DNA of 64,000 bases from Candidatus Falkowbacteria bacterium (GTDB taxonomy: Bacteria > Patescibacteriota > Patescibacteriia > Patescibacteriales > UBA12465), in assembly GCA_037137655.1 (NCBI GenBank), contig JBAXJX010000001.1, positions 353,188-417,187 of the forward strand, given 5' to 3'. Of the stretch, positions 12,039 through 49,946 are shown piece after piece (position 1 is the stretch's first letter; each line of letters begins with the position of its first letter). The notes beneath the pieces are model-generated. The model was not told the DNA's origin, ran no database searches, and worked only from the letters and a program-made list of their open reading frames with translations. Both the position numbers and the translations under genes were made by a program.

Positions 12039-12104
12039 TTATTAGTACTTTAAGTATTATATATCAAATAAACGGCTGTAAAGCCTAAAAAGATATATAA
12101 CAAT

Positions 12105-12143: not shown

Positions 12144-12181
12144 CCGAATTTAAGCATTTAAAACATTTAAGGTATTTCCCT

Positions 12182-13132: not shown

Positions 13133-13146
13133 TAGTAATATCTCAA

Positions 13147-13178
13147 CAAAAAAAACTCCAATGCGGAGTTCTTTTTTA
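13147..13178. terminator. Bidirectional terminator
   Basis: aaaaaaaactcc-aatgc-ggagttctttttt, between convergent genes. Confidence 0.65.
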
Positions 13179-13187
13179 ATTTTATTT

Positions 13188-14414: not shown

Positions 14415-14454
14415 GACACTATATTAACACGTTTTTTAATTTTTGTAAATACTA

Positions 14455-15639: not shown

Positions 15640-15739
15640 ATTCTCTATTATATGATTTTTTGCATAATTTAGCAAATTTTTTATTTGTCGGATTTTATTA
15701 AATATGTTAAAATTAAATTAATAATTATTATAAAAAAAT

Positions 15740-32695: not shown

Positions 32696-32738
32696 AATTT
32701 TTGAAAAATTATTTTTATTAAATTATAGGTTTCAAAAT

Positions 32739-33167: not shown

Positions 33168-33176
33168 AAAATAAAA

Positions 33177-33680: not shown

Positions 33681-33681
33681 A

Positions 33682-35430
33682 TTAATCCCAAGTAAAATCA
33701 TACCAAAAATCAGTATCAGCTGAACCGGTACCAACATGGGCCGTTAAAGCTTTACCAACTGGCGTGGTGTACATTAAATTAGTTGCCCCGTTCCAAACAG
33801 CACTGAATAATTGTTGATTAGTATTGGCAAACAAGGCCATAATGTCATTACTCAAAATATCAGGAATAAGTCGTGTCGTTAATGTTTGTGATCCCAGCCC
33901 AGAAATTAAAGTAGCGGCACTATCCCAAGTAGCCGTAGAAGTATTATATTTTTTCAAAAAACCAGCCGTAGTGGATGACAAATCACCAAAAATGGCAATG
34001 GCTGGGCCACCATTAGTATAAGGATAAGCCAAGGCGTTGCTAAGCTGAACACCATTATCAGTTCCAGAGACAGATGTTAAAACATTATTGGTCGGTACGG
34101 TAATTGTGGGTGTAAAATCATTTTTAAAACAAACGATTCTAGCCTGAGCAGCAGCATCCTTATTACAGAAAATAAATTCATTAGCTTTAGGATTGGCCGC
34201 AATACTTAGAGCGCCAATATTATTTGTTTGAGTTGCAGTTATTGTCGACGAACTCCAAGTACCGCCACCGCTACCATTGGCCGTAAAAATCTGGGCGGCA
34301 ATATTCTTATTATTACCACCTCTATAAACTAAGCCGCCGATAAGCGGACTATTTGGACTCCAAGTAAAATCAATTTCCTTCTCAGTGTTTATCACGCCGT
34401 TAACATCATGAATAGGGTGGAGCGTCCAAGTGCTACCATTAAAATACTCCGTATCAGCATCTTTGTTTTGATCATAAATAGCTACCATTACTTCATTGGT
34501 TCCTGGCCGATTACGCGCGATAATAAAATTAGGAATGCCGCCGCCATTACCAGACAAATCCGCTAAATTACTTTGTGAGCCCCAAGATGAACCGCTCCAA
34601 ACTACATATTTTGGTATTGTGGCATTATCCGAATAGATGGCCATGAAATTACCATTCGCCAAATAAGCGCCATCAAAGTTTTTGACATCAAGAAAATTTT
34701 TGTTTGTGATAGTGGAAAGAGCTTTAACATTTCCCCAGGTTGAAGTTGTGCCGTTATAAACTTGAGCGTAAAGATATTGAAAAGTACCATCGTAGTGACG
34801 CGAAATAACAATTTTTTCATTCCGGGTCGGCGAAGAATAAACCCTGATGGCGCGAGCATAACGATTAGTCGAAACATCAATATCAGCCAAAGATGAAGTT
34901 GCACTCCAGACACCAGCCGCACTAAATGTTTTAGACCACATTATATCATTTGTAATACCACCAGCACTATAAACCAACATACCGCCGTGACCAACCGGGG
35001 CTGAAGCCACTTGCCAATTAGTTAAATAAGTAACTAAAGAAATTGAGCCACTTCTCTGTCCATTTTGCATCCAAGTAACCGTACTAGTCACCATTTTGCG
35101 ATTAGCACTAATTGTACCAACAGAAATTTGGCGCGTAAAAACACCCAGATTATCCGGAGTAGTAGTTAAGCTCCATTGATTACTAGAAGTTGATAAATAA
35201 TACGTCCCATCAACTAAATTAGTAAAACTAGCATCACGAATGTTACGTGCTGCTTCCAAACCTTCCTCGGCCAACATATTGGCGTGTTCACGACCACCAG
35301 CTAGTGAAGTTGATTCTTCGCCATAAAGAAAACCGCTAACCAAAACTGTCACCATAATAACAAAAATTGAAGCGGCTAGTAAGGCCTCAACTGTCGAAAA
35401 TCCTGTCTTTTTATGTAAAATATTTTTCAT
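33682..35430 (-). CDS. Large pilin-like protein, paralogue 1 (582 aa): prepilin N-terminus + repeat (propeller-like) domain
   Basis: MKNILHKKTG|FSTVEALLAASIFV. About 8 repeats of roughly 50-55 aa ending in [YFW]NG..[ST]W-type turns. C-terminus DFWYDFTWD. I chose the internal ATG at 35428-35430, so the track ORF extension to 35553 is rejected. Confidence 0.75.
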   Translation of the reverse strand: MKNILHKKTGFSTVEALLAASIFVIMVTVLVSGFLYGEESTSLAGGREHANMLAEEGLEAARNIRDASFTNLVDGTYYLSTSSNQWSLTTTPDNLGVFTRQISVGTISANRKMVTSTVTWMQNGQRSGSISLVTYLTNWQVASAPVGHGGMLVYSAGGITNDIMWSKTFSAAGVWSATSSLADIDVSTNRYARAIRVYSSPTRNEKIVISRHYDGTFQYLYAQVYNGTTSTWGNVKALSTITNKNFLDVKNFDGAYLANGNFMAIYSDNATIPKYVVWSGSSWGSQSNLADLSGNGGGIPNFIIARNRPGTNEVMVAIYDQNKDADTEYFNGSTWTLHPIHDVNGVINTEKEIDFTWSPNSPLIGGLVYRGGNNKNIAAQIFTANGSGGGTWSSSTITATQTNNIGALSIAANPKANEFIFCNKDAAAQARIVCFKNDFTPTITVPTNNVLTSVSGTDNGVQLSNALAYPYTNGGPAIAIFGDLSSTTAGFLKKYNTSTATWDSAATLISGLGSQTLTTRLIPDILSNDIMALFANTNQQLFSAVWNGATNLMYTTPVGKALTAHVGTGSADTDFWYDFTWD

Positions 35431-35431
35431 A

Positions 35432-37216
35432 TTAATCCCAGGTAAAATCATACCAATAATCTTCATCGGCCGAGCCACTACCCGTATGAGATACCAAGGC
35501 TTTACCGACTGGAGTAGTATAAATTGTGCTACTCGCACTATTCCAAAATACACTAAATAATTGCTGACTAGTATTAGCTAGTAATATTAAAATATCATCA
35601 CTTTGATTATCCGGAATTAAACGAACGGTTTCCAACGTAGCCCCCAAAGCGGCAATCGAAGTGCTGGCACTATCCCAAGTTACCGTGCCGGAATTATATT
35701 TTTTCAAAAGCGCCGAGCTAGTAGAAACATCTGAATAAACTGAAATGGCTGTAGTAGTATTTATCCCAAAAGCATTGTCGTAACTGCGTTGAATGCCAGT
35801 GTCTGAGTTGCTCGTTAAAGTATTGTTAGTTGGCACACTTATCGCTGGCGTAAAATCACTTTTGTAACAAATAATTCTCGGAGTAGTGTTCGCGTCTTTA
35901 TCACAAAAAATAAATTCACTAGCCTTAGGGTTGGCTGTAATATCTAATGCTCCAATATTGCTAGTTTGAACACCAGTAGCAATCGCTGTACTCCAGGTGC
36001 CGCCACCACTACCATTGGCCGTAAAAATTTTTAGACCAATTTTTTTGGAGTTAGCCCCTGTATAAATCAAACCACCGATCAAAGAATTGTTAGGGCTCCA
36101 AGCAAAATCCACAAACTTTTTGGTCGCTAGCGGCGCTGAAACATCATGTGATACTGGACCAGACCAATTAGTTAGCGTATAAGTTCCGCCGTTAAAGTAT
36201 TCCGTATTTGCATCCGAAGCTTGATCAAAAGTCGCCACCATCACCTCATTTGTACCTGGTCGATTACGCGCAACAATAAAATTAGGAATACCACCAGTTG
36301 CTAAAGGATTGATACTGTTTTGCGCCCCCCAAGATGTACCATTCCAAATTCTATATTTAGTTGTCGTCGAGTTATCTGAATAAAGCGCCATAAAATCACC
36401 ATTGGCTAAATAGGTTCCATCAAAATTTTGCACATCCAAATAAGTCGTAGCATTCCAACTTGATAGTAATTGTACATTTCCCCAGCTTGAACTAGCGCTA
36501 TTATAAACTTGGCTATAAATATATTGCGTCGTACCATTGTAATGACGTGAGATGGCAATTTTTTCTTGGCGCGAGTTAGAAGAGTATAAAGTTAGAGCCC
36601 GAGCATAACGATTAGTGGTAGAAGTACTTACATCCGCCATAGAAGATGTGGCACTCCACACCCCAGCCGCACTCAGAGTTTGATAAACCATATTTTCATT
36701 ACTTGAAGCGCCAATGCTGTAAACCAACATACCACCATGGGCCGTAGGAGTTGTTGCTACCTGCCAATTAGTTAACAAGGTTGTAAGCGAAATAGTCACA
36801 TTTTGTTGTCCGCCTTGCAACCAAGAAACCGTGCTGGTTACCACTTTGCGTTTAGCATCGATTGTGCCAATTGAAATTTGGCGCGTAAAAATACCTAGAT
36901 TATCCGGAGTACTTGTTAGACTCCATTGATTACTAGAAGTTGATAAATAATATGTCCCATCAACTAAATTAGTGAAACTAGCATCACGAATATTACGCAC
37001 CGCCTCCAAGCCACCTTCTGCCAACATATTGGCGCGCGCTCTATTACCAGCTAAAGTAGTAGCTTGTTCACCATAAAGAAAACTAGCCACCAAAGAAACA
37101 ACCAGCAACACAAAAATTGAAGCGGCCAATAAAACCTCAGTCGTTAAAAAAGCTCGGCGCTTAGTAGTTAACCGTGCCCTTGCTATTAATTGTGAGAATG
37201 CGTGTCGAGGAAACAT
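35432..37216 (-). CDS. Large pilin-like protein, paralogue 2 (594 aa)
   Basis: Collinear with paralogue 1 at a 1750-nt offset. The leader MFPRHAFSQLIARARLTTKRRA|FLTTEVLLAASIFV has Ala at -1. The only in-frame start I found is the ATG at 37214-37216, overlapping the upstream gene by 56 nt. Confidence 0.7.
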   Translation of the reverse strand: MFPRHAFSQLIARARLTTKRRAFLTTEVLLAASIFVLLVVSLVASFLYGEQATTLAGNRARANMLAEGGLEAVRNIRDASFTNLVDGTYYLSTSSNQWSLTSTPDNLGIFTRQISIGTIDAKRKVVTSTVSWLQGGQQNVTISLTTLLTNWQVATTPTAHGGMLVYSIGASSNENMVYQTLSAAGVWSATSSMADVSTSTTNRYARALTLYSSNSRQEKIAISRHYNGTTQYIYSQVYNSASSSWGNVQLLSSWNATTYLDVQNFDGTYLANGDFMALYSDNSTTTKYRIWNGTSWGAQNSINPLATGGIPNFIVARNRPGTNEVMVATFDQASDANTEYFNGGTYTLTNWSGPVSHDVSAPLATKKFVDFAWSPNNSLIGGLIYTGANSKKIGLKIFTANGSGGGTWSTAIATGVQTSNIGALDITANPKASEFIFCDKDANTTPRIICYKSDFTPAISVPTNNTLTSNSDTGIQRSYDNAFGINTTTAISVYSDVSTSSALLKKYNSGTVTWDSASTSIAALGATLETVRLIPDNQSDDILILLANTSQQLFSVFWNSASSTIYTTPVGKALVSHTGSGSADEDYWYDFTWD

Positions 37217-37595
37217 TTGATATTAAAGTGATTGTCCCGGTAGCTACTGGCATCCCGGAAAATTTATTAAAAATAATTTGCGTGCTCGTAGACGGATTAA
37301 CGCTATTGGGCATATCTGCAACCTCGTCATAAGTAGCGTCATGACCACTATAATTTGTTCCTTTAAAAATAGTAACATTGGCGGTTTGGACATAAACACC
37401 CCAAGCGCTGTCGCCGCTAGAAGACTGAGCTAAAGATTGAGCGCGGCGCAAACTTTGAGCTACAGTTACAACGGCCACGTCCAAATCACTCCGACTTTGA
37501 AATGACTGATAAATTGGGATAGTAGTTCCGACAATAATAATTATCATTGCCATTGAAAGAAGGACCTCCATTAATGTAAACCCGCGTTTAACCAT
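37161..37595 (-). CDS. Minor (pseudo)pilin
   Basis: MVKRG|FTLMEVLLSMAMIIIIVG. 144 aa. The start lies 1 nt after the pilC stop. Confidence 0.8.
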   Translation of the reverse strand: MVKRGFTLMEVLLSMAMIIIIVGTTIPIYQSFQSRSDLDVAVVTVAQSLRRAQSLAQSSSGDSAWGVYVQTANVTIFKGTNYSGHDATYDEVADMPNSVNPSTSTQIIFNKFSGMPVATGTITLISNVSSTRILTINSKGTVNY

Positions 37596-37596
37596 A

Positions 37597-38691
37597 TTAT
37601 TGTTGTGAGCCCATACCGCCTAAAAGATTGTAAATTGGCATAATAATTGCTAAGGCCACACCAATAACTGCAAACCACACGATAATTAACAATAGCGGCT
37701 CTAGAATAACGGTTAAATCTCGAACGGTTGTTTCGGTTTTAGCTTCATAATTAGAGCCAACTTTCATTAAAGCATCAGCCAGAGTACCGGATCGTTCGCC
37801 GGCAATAATCAATTTTTGAATTGAACTTGGAATTAAGTGGCGAGAGCCATGATAGGCATCAAACGATTGTTGAAAAGAATTTCCGTCTTCCAAGTTCTTC
37901 CCTAAAAATTTATAAAACTTTTTATAACGATAAGTATCACAAGATTGGATTAAAGAATTAACTGATTGTGTAATTGGTAATCCGGCTGCCAATAAAATTC
38001 CCAACAAATAACCGAAGCGTGACAACTCAACCTCACGCATTAAACGACCAACACCCGGCACAAGAAATAAAATTCCCTGACCAATACGCTTGGACCCCGG
38101 AAAGAAAAAAATAAAATAAGCTAGTGCTGTTATCGTTAAAATTATGGTCGGCACCGCTATCACACCATGACTACCTAGAAAATTAGAAAAAGTGATTAAT
38201 AAGCGCGTAAGCAACGGTAATTGCAAATGAAGTTGCGTAAAAACATTAGCTAGTTTTGGCAATACAAACCAAGAAATACCAACACCAATAAATCCAGTTA
38301 GACCAAGCACAAAAATTGGATAAGCTACCGCTGATCTAATGCGTGATTTAAAAATACGATTTTTTTGTTGCTCAGCACTAATGATTTGTAAATTTTCTGA
38401 AAGTCGACCAGACTCTTCACCGATACGAGCCAAGGAGATAGAGTGATCAGGAAACAATCCAGAAGATTCGAGTGCGCGCCACAAAGGCGACCCAGCCTCA
38501 ACGTCGTCTTTTATTTGAACAATAACTCTTTGCATGTGACGTGAGTCAATATCACCAGAAACAGCATCAATCGCATCAAAAATACTCATACCAGCGCCAA
38601 CTAGTATACCTAAATTTTCCATGAAACTATCACGACTCTTGCCTAAACCGACAGTGGATAGTGAATGACCAATTTTTTTAAAAATATTCAT
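37597..38691 (-). CDS. pilC: Type IV pilus platform protein (GspF/PilC family)
   Basis: Two GspF-type repeats (GSPLWRALESSGLFPDHSISLARIGEESGRL and GNSFQQSFDAYHGSRHLIPSSIQKLIIAGERSGTL) and 3 TM helices. Confidence 0.9.
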   Translation of the reverse strand: MNIFKKIGHSLSTVGLGKSRDSFMENLGILVGAGMSIFDAIDAVSGDIDSRHMQRVIVQIKDDVEAGSPLWRALESSGLFPDHSISLARIGEESGRLSENLQIISAEQQKNRIFKSRIRSAVAYPIFVLGLTGFIGVGISWFVLPKLANVFTQLHLQLPLLTRLLITFSNFLGSHGVIAVPTIILTITALAYFIFFFPGSKRIGQGILFLVPGVGRLMREVELSRFGYLLGILLAAGLPITQSVNSLIQSCDTYRYKKFYKFLGKNLEDGNSFQQSFDAYHGSRHLIPSSIQKLIIAGERSGTLADALMKVGSNYEAKTETTVRDLTVILEPLLLIIVWFAVIGVALAIIMPIYNLLGGMGSQQ

Positions 38692-38695: not shown

Positions 38696-40366
38696 TTAAA
38701 CTATTTTTTTATCAAGATTTATTACTGGTGGTTCAGCCACACGAAGTAATTCATCTAAGGTGGTGATACCACCTTTAACCTTTTCAATGCCATCCTCAAA
38801 CAAAGATAGTGTTCCCTGCTTTCGGGCCAAATCCCAAACCTCGATTGAGGATGGAGACTTCAAAATTAATTCGCGCATCTCTTGGGTGTTTTTAATAAAT
38901 TCAAAAATAGCAGTCCGACCGCGAAAACCAGTGCCGTCACAAGTTGGACAACCTTTACCCTCGTACATTATAGCCTCCTTTTTTCCAAAAGCAGCTTTAG
39001 TCCAATAATCATTTAATGGAATTTTAGAAAGTGGGACTGTAACACTACGACGACAGTTTGTACAAATTTTGCGCACAAGACGTTGAGCTACGATTAACTC
39101 CAAGGTTGAAGACAATAAAAACTCTTCCGCCCCCATATCTAAAAGGCGTGGAATAGCCGTTGCAGCATCGTTAGCATGAAAGGTTGAAAACAATAAATGA
39201 CCAGTTAAAGCAGCGTTAATTGAAATTTCCACTGTTTCCTCATCACGAATTTCACCCACCAAAATTATATCCGGATCCTGACGAACAATAGAGCGTAAAC
39301 CTTTAGCGAAAGTTAAACCAGTTTGTTGGTTTACTTGAATTTGATTAATACCTAACATTTTATATTCCACTGGATCCTCAATAGTAGTAATGTTAACATC
39401 TGGTTCATCTAAAATTTTCAACAAAGAATAAAGAGTGGTTGTTTTACCAGAACCAGTTGGACCAGTAACCAAGATCATGCCAAAAGGTTTATTGGAGGCA
39501 ACTTTAAATATTTCTTGGTTCTCTTGTGATAGACCTAATTCCGATAAAGTAAGATTTTGCACATAAGCCGAAAGAACGCGCAATACCACCTTTTCCCCGT
39601 CAACCGTTGGCACAATTGAGGTACGCAAATCAACAATATTATCAACATCTTCATAGCGCATCGAACCGTCTTGAGCGGCAAAATGTTCGTCGATTCTTAA
39701 ATGACTTTGAACCTTAATACGATTTAAAATATTCTCATAATATTCCCGTGGGATACGACCAGCTTCCTGCAAAACACCATCAACTCGAAAACGCACCAAA
39801 ACACGGTCACGTTGTGGCTCAAGATGAATATCGGAAGCATGATAAGTTAAAGCATCTAAAATAATTTGTTCAATAATTTCCGGAGCAACACGTTTTTGAG
39901 TAGTAATAATTTGAGAAAATCTTGTCGCTAATGATTTACGGTATTGAGCTAAAGCTGAGTCAATATCATCACCACCAGAATAACATAAAACGATTTTCTT
40001 TTTTGGAAAAATTGGAGTTAAGGCTTCAATAATGCCGGGTTGCATCGGATTATCAGTTGTAATATAAATAACAGATTTCTTTTCAGTAAAAAAAATGGTG
40101 CGAAATTGCATAGCAATATCTTGCGGAATCATCATTATTTGCTCATGTGATGGCATGTTAATGTTAAGATTGGCATATGGCACGGCAAAAGCCTCAGCGA
40201 TCGCCTGATCCAAAATATCACGAGAAATTAATCCCTCGGATAATAAATATTCCACAATTGAAGATTCTCTTTTTTTAGCAAATTCTTCGGCAGTGGCAAT
40301 ATCATCCTCACTGACATAATTACCTTTAAGCAAGGCTTGCTTGATTGTAGCATCATCGAATTTCAT
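38696..40366 (-). CDS. pilB: Type IV pilus assembly ATPase (GspE/PilB family)
   Basis: N-terminal T2SE-N domain, Walker A GPTGSGKTTT, Asp/His boxes, tetracysteine CTNC..CPTC. Confidence 0.95.
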   Translation of the reverse strand: MKFDDATIKQALLKGNYVSEDDIATAEEFAKKRESSIVEYLLSEGLISRDILDQAIAEAFAVPYANLNINMPSHEQIMMIPQDIAMQFRTIFFTEKKSVIYITTDNPMQPGIIEALTPIFPKKKIVLCYSGGDDIDSALAQYRKSLATRFSQIITTQKRVAPEIIEQIILDALTYHASDIHLEPQRDRVLVRFRVDGVLQEAGRIPREYYENILNRIKVQSHLRIDEHFAAQDGSMRYEDVDNIVDLRTSIVPTVDGEKVVLRVLSAYVQNLTLSELGLSQENQEIFKVASNKPFGMILVTGPTGSGKTTTLYSLLKILDEPDVNITTIEDPVEYKMLGINQIQVNQQTGLTFAKGLRSIVRQDPDIILVGEIRDEETVEISINAALTGHLLFSTFHANDAATAIPRLLDMGAEEFLLSSTLELIVAQRLVRKICTNCRRSVTVPLSKIPLNDYWTKAAFGKKEAIMYEGKGCPTCDGTGFRGRTAIFEFIKNTQEMRELILKSPSSIEVWDLARKQGTLSLFEDGIEKVKGGITTLDELLRVAEPPVINLDKKIV

Positions 40367-40444
40367 AAATTTATATAATTTCCACTACTCGCGACAAAAC
40401 AGTCGATAACGAAGTATTGAATTTTAACATAAGATTCTAGAACA

Positions 40445-40837
40445 CTAAGCTAAGGCCTTTTTTACATCATTAATAATGTCAGCTAAATGCACATCGGCTT
40501 TAACATAAGTTGCAGTCACACCGAGATGAATGTAGGACTGAATTTTATCCGGACTAGCTGTATTGGAGACCACAAAAATTGGAATATTTTTAAACTTATC
40601 ACTACTTTTCAACATAATCACAAAATCCAAACCATCAGACTCGCCCAAAAGATAGTGATCCAACCAAATAGCATCAATTTTGTCAGGATTATCTAAAACT
40701 GCTAAAGCGGCATGCACCGAATTAACAGCGAAAACTTCGAAGCCAGCATAAGTTAATTTATCCTTAACAACCTCCTGTAAAGATGGTTCGTCTTCTAGAA
40801 CTAAAATTCTAAATTTTTCATTTTTATTTACAGTCAT
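40445..40837 (-). CDS. Single-domain response regulator (receiver only)
   Basis: 130 aa. ILVLEDE, IWLDHYL (acceptor Asp), VVSNT, YVKA. No output domain. Confidence 0.85.
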   Translation of the reverse strand: MTVNKNEKFRILVLEDEPSLQEVVKDKLTYAGFEVFAVNSVHAALAVLDNPDKIDAIWLDHYLLGESDGLDFVIMLKSSDKFKNIPIFVVSNTASPDKIQSYIHLGVTATYVKADVHLADIINDVKKALA

Positions 40838-40852
40838 AAATTTAAAATTAAA

Positions 40853-41221
40853 TTACAATATTTTTTTAACGTATTCCACTACCTCAGCCAAAGTAATATT
40901 AGATTTTATAAAAAAATCTTTAGCACCCAAATCTTTAGCGCGCTTCTCATCACCTTGCTGACTTAAATTCGACAAAATAATAACTGGAGTTTTTATACCC
41001 TCACGATTCATTTGCTCTAACACTGAGAAGCCATCCATTTTAGGCATGATCAAATCCATCAAAACTAAATCAACACTTTCTTTTGATAAATATTGTAGAG
41101 CACTTTCACCGTTAGGAGCTGTAGCTGTTTCAAAACCAACAATACCTAGCTTCAATTCTAAAGCATGGGCAATCGCTCGCTCGTCATCAACGATAAGTAT
41201 TTTCTTTTTAGCTGAAGCCAT
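40853..41221 (-). CDS. Single-domain CheY-like response regulator
   Basis: 122 aa. ILIVDDE, LVLMDLIMPKMDG, ILSN, FFIKS. Confidence 0.9.
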   Translation of the reverse strand: MASAKKKILIVDDERAIAHALELKLGIVGFETATAPNGESALQYLSKESVDLVLMDLIMPKMDGFSVLEQMNREGIKTPVIILSNLSQQGDEKRAKDLGAKDFFIKSNITLAEVVEYVKKIL

Positions 41222-41291
41222 ATATTTTTACAAAAATTTTCTAATATAATTATAACAAAAAATAAACTTTCCGACAAGAAAAATTATAAAA

Positions 41292-42815
41292 TTATTCCAA
41301 TCTCTTTGTACCATCTTTTTTAATCATGCCAGTTTTTGGTAAAAGCACAGTAAAGGTTGTGCCAATATTTTCTGTAGAAACAAAACTAATAGTGCCACCA
41401 CAACTATCAACAATCATCTTGGTCAAATAAAGCCCAAGTCCATTACCAGCCACATCAACCAAGCGAGCGTTATCAGAGCGATACAACTTACTAAATATTT
41501 TCGTCTGATCTAACGAAGGAATACCGATACCAGTGTCGCTCACCGTAATTTTTAAATTTTTACCTTCAATTTTAGCGGTAAATTTAACCTCACCGCCAAC
41601 TGGTGTATATTTAATGGCATTAGTAATTAAATTTTCAACAACGATGTGCATTAGCTGCCAATCAAGCATTATTGGTGGAATGAGTGCGTCATAGTCAAGA
41701 GAAAATTTTATAGACCGAGTTTTAATATTATGATCTTGTTCAAGTATGACGGTATTAACAACATCAGAAAATAAACACTCCTTCGGATCAATAATAAAAG
41801 TCCCAAGCTCGATACGAGAAACACTAAGCAAAGAATTAACTAAATTAATCATTCTTTGATTACCTAAATAAATTTCATCCAACAAAGTTCTTTGGACAAC
41901 TGGCACATCGCCAGCATCACCAGCCAGTAACATTTCTACATACCATTTTATAATTGAAAGCGGTGAACGTAGTTGATGTGAAGCTAAAGAGACGAATTCA
42001 GTTTTAGCTCGATCAATATTTTTTTCATTAGTTATATCACGCTCAATTCCGATAAAATAAAGAATGTTTTTATTTTTATCCAGCGCTGGAGAAATACTGG
42101 CGGTTGCATCATAAACCTCACCGTTTTTACGACGATTATTTAATTCACCAGTAAAAGTCGTTTTCTTATTTTTAATTGTATCCCAAAGTTTTTTGTAAAA
42201 ATCCAAAGACATTGGCATATTCCACAACTTCCCCGCTTTAGTTCCGATAACTTCCGCCCGACTATAACCGGTAATTTTTTCCACCATTTTATTGGCGTAA
42301 ATAACAATTCCTTCTGGATCAGTTATAACAATATGATCAGAAGCATTATCCACAGCCAATTTAAACTTTTCCAAATCATTAACAGCCGTATCAAATTTAA
42401 CCGCTTCTAATGCTAAATCACTGGTACGATTAGCTATTTCCAAGTTTAAACTTTTATTAGTGCTATTTAAATTACTAATAGCCCTCTCCAAACTAAGAGC
42501 TACGGAACCAACTGCCCCGGCCGAGTTTAATAAATCAGCTCCAATTTTTATATCAAAATTTTGCGCACCGATTTCCTTTATAATGCTATCAATTTTTTTA
42601 ATTTTTTTACTTTCCTCATTGGCATAAAAAATAGCCAAAGAAAGCAACAAAATAAAAAAAATCGCAATCAAAATTACAAAAGAATTAACATCAATTAGTC
42701 CGACTACGCCAAAACTGTTAAGTGAGAAATAAATCCAAAAAACTACAGATAGTAATAACAATAGGACAAGCAATATTATTAAATAAACAGCTGATCCTTT
42801 CTTTTGGGTGTTCAT
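41292..42815 (-). CDS. Sensor histidine kinase (2 TM with minimal loop, HAMP-like linker, PAS, HisKA, HATPase_c)
   Basis: H-box SLASHQLRSPL. N/G boxes LITNAIKYT and DTGIGIP, GNGLGL. PAS region SDHIVITDPEGIVIYANK. Confidence 0.9.
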   Translation of the reverse strand: MNTQKKGSAVYLIILLVLLLLLSVVFWIYFSLNSFGVVGLIDVNSFVILIAIFFILLLSLAIFYANEESKKIKKIDSIIKEIGAQNFDIKIGADLLNSAGAVGSVALSLERAISNLNSTNKSLNLEIANRTSDLALEAVKFDTAVNDLEKFKLAVDNASDHIVITDPEGIVIYANKMVEKITGYSRAEVIGTKAGKLWNMPMSLDFYKKLWDTIKNKKTTFTGELNNRRKNGEVYDATASISPALDKNKNILYFIGIERDITNEKNIDRAKTEFVSLASHQLRSPLSIIKWYVEMLLAGDAGDVPVVQRTLLDEIYLGNQRMINLVNSLLSVSRIELGTFIIDPKECLFSDVVNTVILEQDHNIKTRSIKFSLDYDALIPPIMLDWQLMHIVVENLITNAIKYTPVGGEVKFTAKIEGKNLKITVSDTGIGIPSLDQTKIFSKLYRSDNARLVDVAGNGLGLYLTKMIVDSCGGTISFVSTENIGTTFTVLLPKTGMIKKDGTKRLE

Positions 42816-42862: not shown

Positions 42863-42871
42863 AGTATAGCA
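42863..42871 (-). promoter_or_regulatory. Candidate extended -10 promoter element for the HK-RR-RR(-pil) unit
   Basis: The minus strand reads TGCTATACT about 45 nt upstream of the kinase ATG. The -35 is weak. Confidence 0.35.
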
Positions 42872-42904: not shown

Positions 42905-44053
42905 TTATTTTGTCTTTCTTTTAAAAACATTAAATTTCATGGCAGCTAAAAAAGTAGCAATAGGCATCGACAAAATAATACCAACACTACCAACGAGTGT
43001 TCTAACTATTTCCGTACTAACAACTTCGGTGTTTATCAAACGACTGAACGTTACGGAGTCATGATTTAAAATAAACAACAATAAGAGCGGCAACGAGGCG
43101 CCAGCATAAGTTAAAAATAAAGTATTAATAATAGCACCCAAATGCGACTTACCGACTTTATAAGCCAAGGAGAACACCTTCTTTGATTCTAAGGCTGGGT
43201 TAGCTTCCCTGATTTGTTCTACCGCTTCGATTTGACCAATAATTATATCATCCAAAATTCCAATCGCACCAATAATAAATCCGGCTAATAGCAAGCCCTG
43301 AAAATTAATCTGAGCTGTTCCAGCCCCAATTAAAAAACTTGTTTCTTCTTGGGCCATACCTGATAATTTAGTTAAACTCACAAAAATTACCGACAAAATT
43401 AAGGTTACTAACAATGAAGCTAAAACCGATAAAATAGCGATATGCGACTTACGCTTAAAGCCTTCGCTTAAATAAATTATCGTAGCCAGAATGAGTAGCC
43501 CGCCAATTAAACTAATTATAAAAGGATCATGTCCAGCCAATATTTGCGGCAACATGAATTTAATAATCACAAAGAAACTTATCACCAATCCAAGTAAAGC
43601 ACTAAAGCCCTTCCAGCGACCAATAACAATAACCACAAAAACAAAAATAGCGGTTAATATAAAAATATAGCCCGTTCTAACAAAATCAACTACATAAAAA
43701 GTTGTTTTACCACTATCGTCCGAAAAAGCATCAACATAAACTCGGTCACCGACAGCATAAAAATTAGCATTAGCCACTTCAATTTCTGATACACCAAAAT
43801 AATCAATTTTCTTATCCTCGTATTGACCATCAAGACCAAGAAGTTTTAAATCTTGTTGTTTGTATTTTGAACCATCCTCGCGAGTTTTTTCTTGCACTTG
43901 CATCACTTCAATCACCCGAGCTGTGAAAGTGGCCCCGTCCTTTTTAGTGCTGTCGTTATTATCGCTGCTAGTAGCACTGTCAGCTCGTGATACAGCCGGC
44001 AACAATAAAAACAATATAGCTATTGCTGCAAAAATTTTTCTGAATGTTTTCAT
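42905..44053 (-). CDS. Polytopic membrane protein, YibE/F-like
   Basis: Signal peptide, about 100-aa external domain, then about 8 TM helices. The YibE/F assignment is from memory of that architecture only. Confidence 0.5.
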   Translation of the reverse strand: MKTFRKIFAAIAILFLLLPAVSRADSATSSDNNDSTKKDGATFTARVIEVMQVQEKTREDGSKYKQQDLKLLGLDGQYEDKKIDYFGVSEIEVANANFYAVGDRVYVDAFSDDSGKTTFYVVDFVRTGYIFILTAIFVFVVIVIGRWKGFSALLGLVISFFVIIKFMLPQILAGHDPFIISLIGGLLILATIIYLSEGFKRKSHIAILSVLASLLVTLILSVIFVSLTKLSGMAQEETSFLIGAGTAQINFQGLLLAGFIIGAIGILDDIIIGQIEAVEQIREANPALESKKVFSLAYKVGKSHLGAIINTLFLTYAGASLPLLLLFILNHDSVTFSRLINTEVVSTEIVRTLVGSVGIILSMPIATFLAAMKFNVFKRKTK

Positions 44054-44099
44054 AATATTATTATACTAAATACCACCTTAACAAGCAATTAACCCCGCC

Positions 44100-44141
44100 A
44101 ACAAAAAATGCCAAAAAATTATAGAAATTAATTGGCATTTT
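44100..44141 (-). terminator. Possible terminator
   Basis: aatgccaa (44107-44114) pairs with ttggcatt (44132-44139), followed by a T-run on the minus strand. The loop is long (17 nt). Confidence 0.4.
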
Positions 44142-44167
44142 TATATGGCAATCAGACAAAAAAATGA

Positions 44168-44539
44168 CTAGATATGCATGGCATTGATCTCGGCCGCACT
44201 TATAACCGTGATACCATGACTTTTAGCGTAAGCTTCGACTTTTTTAATATAAGCGTTGCGAATAGTTGCGCTATAATCAAAGCTTGAGAACCTATTGATA
44301 ATCTTTAAAGCGGAGGCGTCCCACTTTAATGATGTTTTAGCACTAGAGCTTGAAGTAGTTTTCTTGGCAACTTTCTTAACAACTTTTTTCACAGTCTTTT
44401 TCTTAACAACTTTTTTAGCTTTAACAACAGTTTTTACCGTCTTTGCGGTGCCTGCCGTTGTCGCCGCACTAACCGGGGCAATGCCAATAAAAAAGCTAAG
44501 AAGCAAAATTAAAGTAAGTCCTGATATAATTTTTTTCAT
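44168..44539 (-). CDS. Secreted Lys-rich protein, unknown function
   Basis: Signal peptide ..APVSA|A, then VKTVVKAKKVVKKKTVKKVVKKVAKKT, then a small folded-looking C-terminus. Confidence 0.5.
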   Translation of the reverse strand: MKKIISGLTLILLLSFFIGIAPVSAATTAGTAKTVKTVVKAKKVVKKKTVKKVVKKVAKKTTSSSSAKTSLKWDASALKIINRFSSFDYSATIRNAYIKKVEAYAKSHGITVISAAEINAMHI

Positions 44540-44566
44540 AGAATATTGGCAATTATTATTTATTTA

Positions 44567-45055
44567 TTATTTTGCAGTTGATGTTGCAGCGTCAGCTGTT
44601 GTTACAGCAGCAGCTTTAGCGGCTTTCAAATCAGTCATAGCACTAGCGTAGGCTGTTTTTCTAGTTGCTTTAGCAGCAGCAGTTGCATCTTTACGAGCTT
44701 TTAGGGCAGCAGCTTTAGCTACTTTGTCTTTTCCAGCAACTTTAACAGCAGCAGCATATGTAGTGTTAGCATCTTTTACGCTAGCCTTGTAAGCAGTGTT
44801 AGCTGATTTAATAGCGGCAGCATAAGCTTGGTTGGCGCTTTTAACAGCGGCTGTATTTACATTAGTTTTTTTAACAGTTTTAACGATATTTTTTTTAACA
44901 ACTTCTTTTTTAACAACTTCTTTTTTAACAGTTCTAACAACAAGCTTAGGGTTATAAGATGTTACAACACCAGTACTGGTTTCAGCTGCCATGGCTGGAG
45001 AAGCAGCAATCGCTACTAAAGCTAAGCTCATAATCAATAAATTTACTTTTTTCAT
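44567..45055 (-). CDS. Secreted Ala/Lys-rich repeat protein, unknown function
   Basis: Signal peptide ..SPAMA|A. VKKEVVKKEVVKKNIVKTVKK, then 11-residue repeats. Confidence 0.5.
   Translation of the reverse strand: MKKVNLLIMSLALVAIAASPAMAAETSTGVVTSYNPKLVVRTVKKEVVKKEVVKKNIVKTVKKTNVNTAAVKSANQAYAAAIKSANTAYKASVKDANTTYAAAVKVAGKDKVAKAAALKARKDATAAAKATRKTAYASAMTDLKAAKAAAVTTADAATSTAK
44747..44845 (-). repeat. Three tandem 33-nt (11-residue) coding repeats
   Basis: VKSANQAYAAA / IKSANTAYKAS / VKDANTTYAAA. Confidence 0.7.
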
Positions 45056-45068
45056 AATCTTTTTTTAA

Positions 45069-45449
45069 TTAATAAATATTAAATAGTTGACGACGATAAC
45101 GACGCGCAATTTTTACGGCATACATTAACAATCCCAAATTAATAAACCAGAGTGCCATCTCGATTATTGGTAAAACCTCATTTAGACCACTAAAGAGATT
45201 AAATACGTAATCAAGACTAAAATCAAAATCACTTATCAGGGCTTTCACCACTGTTAGCGCTTCGGTTTCAGCAATCTGGCCATAAACATGAAGACTTAGG
45301 AACACAAAAACAAAAGATAGGGCGAAGAAAGTTACTAGTAAATAAAATCTAAATTTTATAACCAATAACTGCTTTTTAATCCTCAGCCTTAAATCAGTCG
45401 GAATCTCTTCCGCTGGAACATTTTTAAGTTGTTCTAATAATTTATCCAT
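45069..45449 (-). CDS. Membrane protein downstream of the ECF sigma factor (candidate anti-sigma)
   Basis: Called by position only. About 35-aa cytoplasmic N-terminus, then 2 TM helices. No HxxxCxxC motif. Confidence 0.35.
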   Translation of the reverse strand: MDKLLEQLKNVPAEEIPTDLRLRIKKQLLVIKFRFYLLVTFFALSFVFVFLSLHVYGQIAETEALTVVKALISDFDFSLDYVFNLFSGLNEVLPIIEMALWFINLGLLMYAVKIARRYRRQLFNIY

Positions 45450-45471
45450 ACATTTATTACCGTCTACGATT

Positions 45472-46014
45472 TTAATTGATTTTTTTCAATAACTCGGCCT
45501 TGGCGCGAGAAATATTGGTTTTAACCGTATTAAGCGGTATTTGTAAGATTTCACTAATTTCAACATAGCTAAAGCCTTGTTGATAATAAAGCCTGATAAC
45601 ACTCTCGTGACCCGACTTTAAGGATTTTAAAGCATTCTCCAAATCTAAATTGTTAATCTGCTCTATACTGTAATACGACAAGGAGAGTTCATTTGTTTCA
45701 AACTCAGCCGCTTCATCAATTTCTTGGGTTTTAGGTAGTCTTTTTTGCTTCTTTAACCAATCGTAAGCCGTATTCGTGGCAATCTTATATAACCAAGCAC
45801 GGAAATTTTTATCAGTATCTATTTTACTCCGGTTTTTATAAACCTTAATGAAAGTGTCTTGCGTCAAATCAAGAGCGTCATCAGAGTTACCAAGCAAACG
45901 ATAAAGATGATTATAAATTGCCGCCTGGTAAAAACTAACCATAGCATCAAAAGCTTTTAGGCTTCCCCGCTTAGCCGCAACAATTAAATTTTCATCAAAC
46001 ACCTGGGCTTCCAT
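45472..46014 (-). CDS. ECF-type RNA polymerase sigma factor (sigma-70 family)
   Basis: Region 2 (DALDLTQDTFIKVYKN..FRAWLYKIATNTAYDWLKK) and region 4 (VIRLYYQQGFSYVEISEILQIPLNTVKTNISRAK). Confidence 0.9.
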   Translation of the reverse strand: MEAQVFDENLIVAAKRGSLKAFDAMVSFYQAAIYNHLYRLLGNSDDALDLTQDTFIKVYKNRSKIDTDKNFRAWLYKIATNTAYDWLKKQKRLPKTQEIDEAAEFETNELSLSYYSIEQINNLDLENALKSLKSGHESVIRLYYQQGFSYVEISEILQIPLNTVKTNISRAKAELLKKIN

Positions 46015-46043
46015 TCTATTTCGAGGTATTAATTTTTAAACGA

Positions 46044-46394
46044 TTAAATTTTTTCAAATTTCACACTTAAAATTGGACCGTATTTATTATTTTTTTCATC
46101 CGTAATCTCAATCTTCTCACCCTTAATAATTTGGGATAAGGCCATATTGCTAAGCATTTCTTTATCTGAGGCAATGTAAGTTTTTATTTCATCAATTTTA
46201 TCAAATTCTTCTTTTAAATCTGACTCTAGAACTGATTGGATTTTCTTTTTTTTCTCCTTAAGTTCTTTTAATTCCTCTAGGACTAATTGGTATTCTTGAG
46301 AATTAATCAAAACGCTTTTGTGAATGTCTTTTAAGATCTTTTGTTCACCTTGTTTTTCTCGAATACGATTAAAAATGTCTTGCACTTCTGCCAT
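46044..46394 (-). CDS. Small coiled-coil protein, unknown function
   Basis: 116-aa Glu/Lys-rich ORF between the kinase and sigma genes. Confidence 0.4.
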   Translation of the reverse strand: MAEVQDIFNRIREKQGEQKILKDIHKSVLINSQEYQLVLEELKELKEKKKKIQSVLESDLKEEFDKIDEIKTYIASDKEMLSNMALSQIIKGEKIEITDEKNNKYGPILSVKFEKI

Positions 46395-46462
46395 AATTTT
46401 ATGATAAAATTTTATTATAAGAGAAGAATATTATAGCATCTTGTAGCGCTAATTACAAAGGC

Positions 46463-48880
46463 TTATTTTTGGTCTTTTTTTAGCGCTATTACCGTCTTAC
46501 CAGAACTAAGCGGTAAATTAATGAAGAAGGTTGTACCGATACTCTCGGTTGATTCAAACCAAATTTTACCACCCAAACGCTCAACAATAGCCTTGACTAT
46601 ATATAGCCCCAGACCGTTGCCGTCAGTGAAAAAAAGTTTGGCATTATTAGAACGAAAAAGCTTATTAAAAACCATGTCATGATCAGTACTTGGAATACCA
46701 ATTCCCTCATCTTTAACAACTATGACGATATTTTTTTCAGCTTCATTTAAACTTATTGATAAATCAACTTTTTTGCCAGCTGGTGTGTAATTGGTAGCAT
46801 TTGATAAAAGATTTTGAAAAACCATGCGCACTTGATCAGGGTCAGCCTTGATCATTGGGATATTATCGGCAATATTTTCCTTAAACTTTATTTTTTTATC
46901 TTGCATGATCATTTTTTGCTCCTCGATCACGTTACGAGCCAGTGCTGCCAAATCAACATCTTTTGGTTTATTTACAAAAGTGCCCATGTCTAGGCGTGAG
47001 ACATTAAGAATAGAATTAACTAAAATAATCATGCGCTTATTACTGCTGCGAATATCATCTAAGTATTCAATTTGTTCAGGATTTAATTCACCAACCTGTT
47101 TACTAATTAACATTTCCGTAAATAAACTAATGGCTGATAATGGAGTGCGCAATTGATGGGAAATCAAAGAGACAAACTCATCTTTAGAGTTCTCTAGTTG
47201 CTTGGCCTTGGTAATGTCACGTTCCACGCCAACAAAATAAACTATTTCATTTTTTTTATTAAACACCGGAGAAACAGTAAAGGCGACCGTATAAATTTCA
47301 CCATTCTTACGACGATTTTGTAACTCGCCAGAAAGAACCTTTTTATCTGTTTTTATAACTTTCCAAAAATTTTGATAAAACTCTAGTGGCATCGGAAGCT
47401 TCCATAAAACAGCTGCTTTTTTACCAACCGCCTCTTCAACTTTATAACCAGTCATTTGTTCAGCCATTTTATTAGCATAAATCACAATACCGTCCGGGTC
47501 GGTGATAACGATATGATCAGAAGACCCTTCCACAGCTAGACGGAATTTCTCCAAATCATTAGCCATAACTTCAGCCTTACGTCTTTCAATATCCATATCA
47601 CCCAACAAGGAAATAAGAGCTCTTTTTTGTTTATCAAGCTCCACGCTCTTTTCAGCTGATTCCGCGGCTTTATCACTAACCTTTTTATCCATCACACCAC
47701 TCCAGTCTTTCAATTTTTGTGCAGTTGTTAAAAAAGATTTAGACAAAGAATTTAATTCATCTTGCGCCTTAATAGTTTTATCATCAAAAGAAATATCAAA
47801 ATTACCAGCACTAATTTTTTCCAAAGCACTGTTAAATTTAGGAATTGGACGATAAATTAAATCAGCCAGTAGACGCGCTAAAAAAATAATTACAATAACG
47901 CTCAAAAAAATCTCAAAAATAGTTTCCCACAAAACTGCTTGAGCATTCGCAGTTATTTCACTCTTATCGATTTTTACAACTACACCCCAATTATTTTCCG
48001 GCAAATAACGCCATGATGACAAAACTTCTTTACCTCGATAATCAGCGGCCTGGCCATAACCCGAATTTCCACGAGCCGCTAGTTGGACTGGATCAGTGCC
48101 GGAATTTCCTAAAATTAAACGATTAAACGCCGCTTTAGGATCAAACCGAAGTGGATTCAAAAACATAGCCGCATCACCATTCTTGTTGTAAATATATCTA
48201 CTGTCGGTAGTTTTTGCGGTGGAGTCAACTAATTTAACCAAGTCAACTTCCAATGTAGCATAAGTTAAATAATCATTATTATTAGAATTATATATAGATG
48301 AGGCACTAACCTCAATCATTATAACGCCCAAAAAATCTCCGCTACTTTCGTATACTGGAGCACTAACCAAGAATTCTCCGCCTTTATCGCCAGGATAAAT
48401 ATCGCCATAATAAACTCCAGCCTGGCCGTTTCTAAAGGCAGTTGAACCAAAGCTGTAAAAATTATCACTAATAGCTCGATGTAATAATTGTTTATTGAGG
48501 TCGTAAACAATTACACCGTCAGAATTAACAAAAAAAATATTATTTGTTCCGTGATACTGTCCGGCCAATGATTTAAATTGCGAATCCAAATAAAGTAATG
48601 ACTTGTCGTATTCTGGACTACCAGGCTTATTACCGGTATCTGAAATTATTGCTAGATTTGATTTAATATAGTCATTATCTTTAATACCAATCTCACCATG
48701 AAAGATGTTAAGATTTAACTGAATATTATTAACCTCATTACTTAAAATTGTATCCAAAAAAGATCTATCTTTATTAGCTAGTAATTGCTGACCACTAAAA
48801 TAAGCCAAAGCCATTAATAAAATCAATGGTACTAAAGCAAGTAATAAATAGGTAAAGAAAATCTTTCTTTTAAACTTCAT
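46463..48880 (-). CDS. Sensor histidine kinase (dCache-like periplasmic domain, HAMP, PAS, HisKA, HATPase_c)
   Basis: TM1, about 290-aa external domain, TM2, HAMP (PIPKFNSALEKISAGNFD). The PAS region is paralogous to the 41.3 kb kinase. H-box SLISHQLRTPL. GNGLGL. Confidence 0.9.
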   Translation of the reverse strand: MKFKRKIFFTYLLLALVPLILLMALAYFSGQQLLANKDRSFLDTILSNEVNNIQLNLNIFHGEIGIKDNDYIKSNLAIISDTGNKPGSPEYDKSLLYLDSQFKSLAGQYHGTNNIFFVNSDGVIVYDLNKQLLHRAISDNFYSFGSTAFRNGQAGVYYGDIYPGDKGGEFLVSAPVYESSGDFLGVIMIEVSASSIYNSNNNDYLTYATLEVDLVKLVDSTAKTTDSRYIYNKNGDAAMFLNPLRFDPKAAFNRLILGNSGTDPVQLAARGNSGYGQAADYRGKEVLSSWRYLPENNWGVVVKIDKSEITANAQAVLWETIFEIFLSVIVIIFLARLLADLIYRPIPKFNSALEKISAGNFDISFDDKTIKAQDELNSLSKSFLTTAQKLKDWSGVMDKKVSDKAAESAEKSVELDKQKRALISLLGDMDIERRKAEVMANDLEKFRLAVEGSSDHIVITDPDGIVIYANKMAEQMTGYKVEEAVGKKAAVLWKLPMPLEFYQNFWKVIKTDKKVLSGELQNRRKNGEIYTVAFTVSPVFNKKNEIVYFVGVERDITKAKQLENSKDEFVSLISHQLRTPLSAISLFTEMLISKQVGELNPEQIEYLDDIRSSNKRMIILVNSILNVSRLDMGTFVNKPKDVDLAALARNVIEEQKMIMQDKKIKFKENIADNIPMIKADPDQVRMVFQNLLSNATNYTPAGKKVDLSISLNEAEKNIVIVVKDEGIGIPSTDHDMVFNKLFRSNNAKLFFTDGNGLGLYIVKAIVERLGGKIWFESTESIGTTFFINLPLSSGKTVIALKKDQK

Positions 48881-48887
48881 ATTTTAA

Positions 48888-49916
48888 TTAAACCTTAGAC
48901 TTTCCGTTCTTCTTATTATTAACGACGTCCTTCGATTCGATTATTCTTAGTTCCCTATCAATCATTATTTTATTAAGTTTCTCTAAGTCAGTATTTTTAT
49001 CCTTAAGTGCGACAATAGCTTGACCACTCTCAACTAATTCTCGACTAATTCTAGTATTATCAGCCACCAATCTATTTATTTTCTCCTTAAAATCATCAAT
49101 TTCCTTTTGATGTGAATCATTTGTCTCCTCTTTGGAGATGCGAAGAGTTTCAACCATACTGTTAAAATTCTTGGCCAAGTCACTCATTTCATCTTTACCT
49201 GATTTAATATCAGCCTTAACACTAAAGTCACCAGCACTAACCTTCATTGCCAAATCATTAAGCATGGCAATTGGTTTTGATAAATTTAAATAAAAAGGAA
49301 TACACAAAAAAATCATGATAATAAAGACTGCCAAAAATGACATGGCAATTTCGCGATACGCTCCAAACAATTGATTATTTAAAGAATCAAAAGAAAATAT
49401 ATAACGCATTACTAGAACGTGCCCACCAGAAATTTCTTTAATCGGCACAAAATACTCTAACACTTTTTGACCCATAAAATCAGACTCATGATAAGATGAT
49501 TCTTCGTTGGTAAGCGCATTGAGAGAGGCTGCATCACTGACCGACCGAACAACATCGCCCGTATATCGCCCAGAACTCAACTCATTGGAGTCAAACAATA
49601 TCCGACCATTAACTGATATTAAAGAGGCATTAATAATATCTTTATTGGTGGCAAATTTTGCTTCCAAACGATCTTTGAAAAATTGAAAATCCTGTTCATC
49701 GGGCTGGGCGTAAAAAGTAATATAATCCTGGTAAATTGACTGGGCACTAAACTCAGAAAATATTTTACCCCGCGTCACAATATCATTATAGAATTCATTG
49801 CGCTGACTGATTAATGAAACCGATGAGAATATCAATAAAGATAAAAATATCAAGATAACCCCAAAGAAACCAATTTTTACAGCCAAACTATTATAATTTA
49901 TTTTAAATTTTTCCAT
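48888..49916 (-). CDS. HAMP-domain membrane protein without an enzymatic output
   Basis: TM1, about 170-aa external domain, TM2, HAMP (KPIAMLNDLAMKVSAGDFSVKADIKSGKDEMSDLAKNFNSMVETL), coiled-coil tail. No H-box or ATPase. Confidence 0.7.
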   Translation of the reverse strand: MEKFKINYNSLAVKIGFFGVILIFLSLLIFSSVSLISQRNEFYNDIVTRGKIFSEFSAQSIYQDYITFYAQPDEQDFQFFKDRLEAKFATNKDIINASLISVNGRILFDSNELSSGRYTGDVVRSVSDAASLNALTNEESSYHESDFMGQKVLEYFVPIKEISGGHVLVMRYIFSFDSLNNQLFGAYREIAMSFLAVFIIMIFLCIPFYLNLSKPIAMLNDLAMKVSAGDFSVKADIKSGKDEMSDLAKNFNSMVETLRISKEETNDSHQKEIDDFKEKINRLVADNTRISRELVESGQAIVALKDKNTDLEKLNKIMIDRELRIIESKDVVNNKKNGKSKV

Positions 49917-49946
49917 ACTTATTACTTATTATTTAATAATAAAATA

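Follow-up and report, generated by a model that had tools for sequence, protein, structure and literature searches.

A histidine kinase and two receiver-only proteins encoded upstream of pilB in a Falkowbacteria genome combine two gene modules conserved across Patescibacteria

In a stretch of 64,000 nucleotides from Candidatus Falkowbacteria bacterium (contig JBAXJX010000001.1, positions 353,188 to 417,187; hereafter the window), genes for a histidine kinase (HK) and two receiver-only response regulators (RR1 and RR2) precede pilB, which encodes the assembly ATPase of a type IV pilus (T4P). Comparison with related loci showed that this block consists of two modules, both of which are conserved throughout Patescibacteria. 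A PAS histidine kinase and its constant RR2-type partner make up module A; in module B, an RR1-type receiver gene precedes pilB, pilC, and pilin genes. We lean toward a model in which the PAS kinase would feed both bare receivers, phosphorylated RR1 (RR1~P) would act on PilB, and RR2 would serve as a sink or feedback element; all steps of this mechanism are inferred from genomics.

Domain content of the kinase and the two receivers

The genes of the block are the following.
41292-42815, minus strand: HK, a histidine kinase of 507 aa with two transmembrane (TM) helices, a short loop, a HAMP-like linker, and PAS, HisKA, and HATPase_c domains
40853-41221, minus strand: RR1, a single-domain receiver of the pilB-linked family, 122 aa (open reading frame [ORF] and Pfam)
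40445-40837, minus strand: RR2, a single-domain receiver of the kinase-linked family, 130 aa (ORF and Pfam)
38696-40366, minus strand: pilB, a PilB-type assembly ATPase of 556 aa (MshEN and T2SSE)
37597-38691, minus strand: pilC, a PilC platform protein of 364 aa (T2SSF), starting 4 nt past pilB

According to the ORF list, these genes and the pilin genes that follow all lie on the minus strand of a window with a GC content of about 35%. The gaps measure 70 nt between HK and RR1, 15 nt between RR1 and RR2, and 78 nt between RR2 and pilB, so that the 3′ end of RR1 is 486 nt ahead of the pilB start with RR2 in between. A preliminary description made from the sequence alone had given a kinase, receivers of 122 and 130 aa, and pilB 78 nt further on, which agrees exactly with the ORF list.

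Pfam places a PAS domain at residues 150 to 262 of HK, HisKA at 270 to 337 (6e-13), and HATPase_c at 388 to 495 (7e-25); the cytoplasmic PAS domain was absent from the preliminary description. Two hydrophobic segments, at about residues 8 to 32 and 40 to 66, are separated by a loop of about 10 residues, which bears out the two TM helices with almost no external loop described earlier. The phospho-accepting residue is H280, within an SHQLRSPL motif. With this H-box histidine in a HisKA/DHp domain and a HATPase_c domain, HK is a two-component kinase of the HisKA class. Its DHp-CA region is 52 to 57% identical to that of the kinases found in Patescibacterial HK-RR2 cassettes, which are mostly about 790 aa long with a dCache-HAMP-PAS architecture. 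Since HK can be aligned with the cassette kinases only from the second TM helix onward, it looks like a sensor-less derivative, i.e., a cassette kinase minus its extracellular sensor.

Both receivers match Response_reg (E of 2.7e-25 for RR1 and 7.4e-11 for RR2). When aligned to Escherichia coli CheY, all five active-site positions are present in each, namely, D12, D13, D56, S84, and K106 in RR1 and E15, D16, D60, S91, and K113 in RR2, and the intact acceptor Asp, Thr/Ser, and Lys noted earlier are thus confirmed. Among solved structures, both receivers matched generic receivers such as PhoP, CheY, PleD, and Spo0F, and no function was assigned from these matches. RR2 also matched the Pfam family cREC_REC slightly below threshold (26.4 bits, the cut-off being 27), but this match overlaps the ordinary receiver domain (REC) match and was given no weight. 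PilB matches MshEN and T2SSE (E of 1e-119) and PilC matches T2SSF. No NCBIfam family scored above its curated cut-off for HK, RR1, RR2, or PilB.

RR1-type receivers are linked to pilB

We defined the RR1 type as receivers of about 120 to 125 aa carrying the signature ...DLIMPKMDGF...LSNLSQ..D..RA..LGAK.FFIKSN with invariant N85, L86, Q88, D91, G99, and K106. The RR1 protein of the window fits this signature in an alignment of 44 sequences (A4) that are 56 to 79% identical to it, and the beta4-alpha4-beta5 region is strongly conserved throughout the family. About 950 clusters of RR1 homologues were found at E < 1e-10; the top 120 are 119 to 159 aa long, and those that carry names all belong to Patescibacteria.

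Four of four RR1 homologues whose genes were looked up adjoin pilB on its upstream side (L171, L172, L173, and L175). Across the loci collected here, RR1-type receivers lie 2 to 70 nt upstream of pilB in L083, L084, L167, L170 to L173, L175, L119, L003, and L050, and the receivers at this place in L083, L084, L167, L171, L172, L173, and L175 are 54 to 63% identical to RR1. In all fetched loci taken together, 13 receiver genes immediately precede pilB; 10 of the encoded receivers belong to the RR1 type and none to the RR2 type. Equal longest-contig sizes indicate 17 further RR1-pilB cases: for 17 of the top 119 RR1 homologues, the longest contig is exactly as long as that of some top-120 PilB homologue, and nine of these contigs are no longer than 6.7 kb. 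Adjacency was confirmed in the one such case that was examined (L175). A single RR2 homologue shares its longest-contig size with a top PilB homologue.

A closer comparison relied on a PilB-based sample made of the window and seven distinct relatives whose PilB proteins are 63 to 68% identical to that of the window. A single bare receiver lies 4 to 20 nt upstream of pilB in L083, L084, L167 (8 nt, RR1-type), and L170, giving five of the eight PilB-clade loci when the window is counted. The receivers upstream of pilB in these relatives are 54 to 60% identical to RR1 and about 28% identical to RR2. The pilus operons of L083, L084, L086, and L170 each close with a kinase gene on the 3′ side, the L086 kinase and a receiver being together at the end opposite to pilB, and a kinase or a CheA system is found inside the pilus operon in six of the eight loci. 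The preliminary description had proposed conservation of a kinase-receiver-receiver-pilB order as a test. Most relatives have an RR1 orthologue directly upstream of pilB, and most have a kinase or, in one case, a CheA system in the same operon. The outcome of this test thus does not refute the proposal, although the four-gene order is not conserved as such. In the window itself, the linkage of RR1 to the pilus operon is retained but its adjacency to pilB is lost.

The same parts recur in several other arrangements. The order is HK-RR1-RR2-pilB in the window, HK-RR2-RR1-pilB in L003 (Saccharimonadales), RR1-pilB-pilins-HK-RR2 in L170, RR1-pilB-HK-RR2 in L119, and RR1-HK-RR2 in L096, L123, and L164. 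Some Saccharibacteria have HK-REC-pilB (L008 and L013), and in L171 (Uhrbacteria) a PAS kinase is followed by an RR1-type receiver and then pilB. Recurrence in this many independent genomes shows that the arrangement reflects more than chance. A search of genome contigs with the single PilB sequence gave no match, and a search with a PilB alignment returned mostly distant PilB proteins (35 to 56% identity) among the matches listed, which serve as a broad background rather than as a test of close synteny.

Two of these loci carry unusual input genes. The pilus operon of L167 ends on its 3′ side with a complete set of chemosensory genes, encoding MCP, CheW, CheY, CheB, and CheA (positions 11991-15656; Logan contig of SRR7004196, PilB P0089). 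Patescibacteria are usually described as being without chemotaxis genes (PMC7137472). In L171 (positions 4696-6954 of Uhrbacteria JACQSC010000003), RR1-pilB is directly preceded by the gene for a kinase whose N terminus is an oxidoreductase module (FAD_binding_6 and NAD_binding_1), ahead of two PAS domains. This domain order suggests that pilus control receives a redox input in Uhrbacteria of this lineage.

RR2-type receivers are linked to the kinase

The RR2 type was defined as receivers of about 125 to 139 aa with invariant W58, D60, H61, Y62, L63, and G65, V90, S91, N92, and T93, and K113. Mean column identity in the family is 60%, with the motifs WLDHYLLG…VVSNTASPDK, of which WLDHYLLG and VVSNT are invariant, and the RR2 protein of the window keeps all invariant columns (alignment A2). 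A metagenome scan by RR2 homology provided a sample of 80 loci (L087 to L166). In 67 of the 80, a kinase ends at most 150 nt upstream of the RR2-type gene, and 59 of the 62 receivers encoded directly downstream of a kinase are RR2-type, whereas pilB lies within 8 kb in only 3 of the 80 loci. RR2 is thus the constant neighbor of the kinase and not of pilB, and RR1 and RR2 do not form an equivalent pair. In the window, RR2 is not directly downstream of the kinase; RR1 intervenes. The idea that RR2 is a lineage-specific insertion between RR1 and pilB was rejected, as RR2 belongs to a large conserved family with a neighbor of its own, the kinase.

Downstream of RR2, 53 of the 80 loci encode one to three extra bare receivers. 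These belong to a third type, with about 37% identity to RR1. The kinase, an RR2-type receiver, and up to three of these third-type receivers form a widespread Patescibacterial cassette with no output domain (e.g., L099:5560-9553 and L138:5623-9596). The RR2-type receiver of the Saccharimonadales locus (L003:8782-9552) bears a C-terminal Pro/Thr/Ala-rich tail of about 130 aa that is absent from other members.

A shared DHp helix is consistent with one kinase type for both receiver families

The DHp helix SHQLRTPLS.INWY.EMLL.GDAG is common to kinases that adjoin RR2 and to kinases of pilus operons that contain RR1 only. The window encodes two kinases, HK and a paralogue.
46463-48880, minus strand: HK2, a paralogous kinase of 805 aa (dCache-PAS-HisKA-HATPase) with no adjoining receiver
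HK carries the shared signature (SHQLR.PLS.I.WY.EMLL.GDAG) and HK2 does not: HK2 has the full-length architecture of the cassette kinases, with the sensor kept, but its DHp helix 1 diverges. A common DHp helix fits one kinase type serving both receiver families, and a single kinase acting on RR1 and RR2 is accordingly what the signature would predict. The preliminary description had named pairing of the receivers with a kinase encoded elsewhere as one outcome that would refute it; we saw no sign of this, given that HK itself has the shared DHp signature.

In L083 and L084, the sensor-less kinase that closes the pilus operon is directly preceded by an ORF of 110 aa with only a HisKA/DHp segment (positions 14235-14567 and 11429-11761, respectively). 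The product of this ORF is 54 to 62% identical to the DHp domain of the neighboring kinase and could be either a truncated duplicate or a kinase-inhibitor-like protein.

The pilus operon and promoter-like sites in the block

Downstream of pilC, the pilus operon continues with the following features.
32240-37595, minus strand: remaining pilus operon (ORFs and Pfam), with the same layout in relatives
37161-37595, minus strand: pilin-like gene, the first gene after pilC
35432-37216 and 33682-35553, minus strand: large ORFs without a family match
33177-33737, 32739-33167, and 32240-32695, minus strand: three small genes, two of which have pilin N-terminal motifs

The two large ORFs (594 and 623 aa; 33682-37216, minus strand) overlap and match no Pfam or NCBIfam family. 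At this position, relatives encode one protein of the LVIVD/beta-propeller kind, about 470 aa long, which may be a tip adhesin.

Three promoter-like sites were found in the block, including the extended -10 element that had been reported upstream of the kinase.
42863-42871, minus strand: extended -10-like motif TGCTATACT, located 47 nt ahead of HK
41249-41277, minus strand: sigma-70-like promoter candidate in the HK-RR1 gap (TTGTCG, 17-nt spacer, TGtTATAAT)
40421-40429, minus strand: extended -10-like motif TGTTAAAAT in the RR2-pilB gap, 54 nt upstream of pilB

The candidate in the HK-RR1 gap has a good -35 element (TTGTCG), matches at 10 of 12 positions, and has the TG extension, its -10 motif (41249-41257) lying 27 nt ahead of RR1. 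Across the window, TGNTAWAMT is present at 40 sites against 24.6 ± 5.3 expected. Twelve of its sites fall in intergenic DNA, which makes up 6.2% of the window (an approximately five-fold concentration), and 10 of these 12 are located 20 to 81 nt ahead of a start codon on the same strand. This concentration ahead of start codons makes the three sites in the block plausible promoters. A generic sigma-70 scan of the window gave 30 sites against 36.2 in shuffled sequence, i.e., no excess. HK, RR1-RR2, and pilB may thus form up to three transcription units.

Proposed mechanism

In the model that we favor, HK would be a membrane-anchored kinase that has lost the dCache domain, has kept the cytoplasmic PAS domain, and autophosphorylates on H280. 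The phosphoryl group would then pass to D56 of RR1 and D60 of RR2, a transfer suggested by gene adjacency and the shared DHp signature. RR1~P is predicted to bind the PilB extension ATPase or the PilB/PilC interface, so that pilus assembly would be changed post-translationally. RR2 would modulate phosphate flow, by competing as a sink or through feedback on the kinase, and could also have a further target. The analysis establishes which domains are present, that the phosphorylation residues are intact, and that the receivers belong to two separate families with different conserved neighborhoods; phosphate transfer from HK to RR1 and RR2, contact with PilB, the direction of the resulting effect, and the part played by RR2 are predictions drawn from the genes.

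Binding of RR1 to PilB with a change in ATPase activity is suggested indirectly by the conserved adjacency and by REC::PilB fusions, two of which were found in a sample of 80 diverse pilB loci among the matches listed. In L020 (positions 9545-11284; Jorgensenbacteria), Pfam detects an N-terminal REC in place of MshEN, and a kinase and another receiver are encoded just upstream of the fusion. In L038 (positions 1510-3852; a deltaproteobacterial metagenome-assembled genome), a C-terminal REC, likewise confirmed by Pfam, follows a Pro-rich linker. Such fusions favor direct action on the motor. The strict MshEN motif for cyclic di-GMP (c-di-GMP) is absent from the PilB of the window and from most of the PilB proteins sampled, which says little. 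A check for loss of this motif in receiver-adjoining PilB proteins was uninformative: none of 15 has the motif, but 75 of 83 others lack it too. Elsewhere, pilB, a bare receiver of 127 to 128 aa, and a PilT-like ATPase of 357 to 358 aa are encoded in that order (L021:9869-13120 and L028:9596-12860).

Several observations weigh against this model. Among the loci seen here, RR2 is the immediate neighbor of pilB only in the window, and RR2-type cassettes have no pilB within 8 kb in 77 of the 80 loci, which leaves room for an RR2 target unrelated to the pilus. In L168, the two receivers are 1.6 to 2.5 kb upstream with an ATPase gene inserted before pilB, and L169, a close relative, has neither receiver nor kinase at the pilus operon. 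The REC domains of the fusions match the RR1 profile weakly, with scores of 91 and 64 against 160 to 200 for true RR1 orthologues, and both fusions come from distant lineages. Because promoter-like sites stand at HK, in the HK-RR1 gap, and in the RR2-pilB gap, cotranscription of the block is not assured. Finally, an orphan OmpR-type regulator 36 kb from the block could be the real output.

A wider generalization, which we regard as possible but doubtful, is that Patescibacteria use a minimal network of one kinase type with many bare receivers and no transcriptional output, with RR1 acting as a phylum-wide post-translational throttle of the pilus extension motor and the even more conserved RR2 family as an obligatory partner of the kinase. 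On this view, RR1 would govern how these episymbionts attach to hosts, twitch, and take up DNA, and in any lineages that are also without PilT, RR1~P could switch a single motor between extension and retraction.

Alternative explanations

One alternative is that RR1 alone is pilus related and that HK-RR2 is a general-purpose cassette with another target, which landed beside RR1-pilB by chance in this lineage. It would account for the 77 RR2 loci without a nearby pilB, for the typical cassette organization of HK-RR2 followed by one to three bare receivers, and for the fact that HK is closest to cassette kinases. However, HK, RR2, RR1, and pilB come together in at least four independent orders (the window, L003, L119, and L170), and RR1-HK-RR2 is also found in L096, L123, and L164. 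The same DHp helix is moreover carried by kinases of pilus operons that contain RR1 and lack RR2, and Patescibacterial genomes have few kinases each, with about five two-component systems (PMC7137472). We consider a chance association unlikely.

A second explanation invokes transcriptional control, in which HK would signal in the manner of PilS-PilR to a DNA-binding regulator encoded either outside the window or at the following locus, with the receivers buffering phosphate.
4450-5250, minus strand: orphan OmpR-type response regulator (REC and Trans_reg_C), the only DNA-binding two-component output in the window
The earlier statement that there is no DNA-binding output holds for the block and not for the window as a whole, where this regulator has no kinase beside it and its neighbors are without family matches or LiaF-like. 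A kinase-less regulator of this kind, the count of two kinases for three receivers in the window, and the promoter-like sites ahead of RR1 and pilB would all suit such a scheme, and classical PilS-PilR pairs do adjoin pilB in Acidobacteria and in deltaproteobacterial loci. In contrast, no DNA-binding regulator is encoded in any of the Patescibacterial pilus operons sampled, the gene conserved next to pilB encodes a bare receiver whose beta4-alpha4-beta5 region is itself strongly conserved, and the REC::PilB fusions point to coupling at the protein level. Transcriptional control of this sort appears less probable still than a chance association. A phosphorelay, with RR1 and/or RR2 acting like Spo0F through an Hpt protein on a terminal regulator encoded elsewhere, is highly improbable: multireceiver cassettes are typical of relays and Spo0F is among the solved-structure matches of RR1 (E of about 1e-13), but that match is no better than those to PhoP, CheY, or PleD receivers, and no Hpt or Spo0B-like gene was seen in the annotated loci apart from CheA in L167.

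Comparison with known systems

The kind of mechanism proposed here, i.e., a receiver acting on the pilus motor, is already known from EmvR, PixG/PixH, and PilG/PilH. The closest functional model is ColS-EmvR-PilB of Xanthomonas oryzae pv. oryzicola, in which a HisKA-type kinase works with EmvR, a single-domain receiver that represses the PilB ATPase by direct binding (PMC11973254). RR1 and RR2 resemble EmvR in having no output domain and a phosphorylatable Asp, and PilB is predicted to be a shared target; EmvR-like receivers are a class defined by function rather than by sequence. EmvR is an orphan unlinked to pilB, and ColS has ColR as an additional, DNA-binding partner; in Patescibacteria, by contrast, the RR1-type receiver is found in the pilus operon phylum-wide and a second receiver family accompanies the kinase. 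DrdR of Xanthomonas campestris is likewise receiver-only and acts on ATPase activity, binding PilB and PilT and stimulating both (PMC13507683). Its REC domains, of which one is degenerate, are arranged in tandem within a single protein, whereas RR1 and RR2 are separate proteins with complete active sites.

In the Tax1 system of Synechocystis (PixL-PixG/PixH; PMC11181946) and the Chp system of Pseudomonas (ChpA-PilG/PilH; PMC10519157), one kinase serves two receivers with unequal roles, one at the PilB motor and the other as a counteracting sink; PixG~P binds PilB1 and PixH is a phosphate sink (PMC11181946). The block also has two bare receivers, and its layout is reminiscent of PixG/PixH. The Tax1 and Chp kinases are, however, CheA-type proteins with Hpt, CheW, and MCP, and PixG has a PATAN domain, while HK is a HisKA-class kinase with a PAS domain. 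Pfam found no CheA, CheW, MCP, or Hpt domain in the block or its flanks, and the lack of CheA, CheW, and MCP means that the block is not a Chp/Tax system.

PilS-PilR is likewise a two-component system encoded in T4P clusters. PilR is an NtrC-type sigma-54 activator of about 450 to 470 aa, and PilS has six TM helices. The block has no AAA+ or DNA-binding domain, HK has two TM helices, and the receivers consist of REC only; without an NtrC-type regulator, the block is not PilSR. In control by MshEN/c-di-GMP and PilZ-FimX, the regulatory input reaches the N-terminal side of PilB (PMC11656802), which is where the L020 fusion carries REC in the place of MshEN, although the signal proposed here is phosphorylation and not a nucleotide.

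Cultivated Patescibacteria cannot bind their hosts, twitch, or compete without T4P, and the regulation of their extension and retraction has been called an open question (PMC11623550, PMC9894109). The main study of Saccharibacteria pili does not mention kinases or receivers, and we found no description of receiver-pilB linkage in Patescibacteria in the literature searched, although an earlier one may exist. The RR1-type receiver, whose gene accompanies pilB throughout the phylum, is a concrete candidate for a pilus regulator, as are the kinases of the same operons. The results also show that these reduced genomes devote much of their small two-component repertoire to kinases wired to bare receivers and not to transcription factors.

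Other genes near the block

Upstream of the block (42905-51344, minus strand), the window encodes a solute-binding protein, a HAMP protein, HK2, an ORF of 116 aa, and an extracytoplasmic function (ECF) sigma factor, together with a small TM protein that may be an anti-sigma factor, two secreted proteins rich in Lys and Ala, and a membrane protein of the YibE/F family. On the other side, three genes downstream of the pilus operon and after the genes for an aminoacyl-tRNA synthetase and BacA, lies the gene for a stand-alone PAS protein of 200 aa (29318-29920, minus strand).

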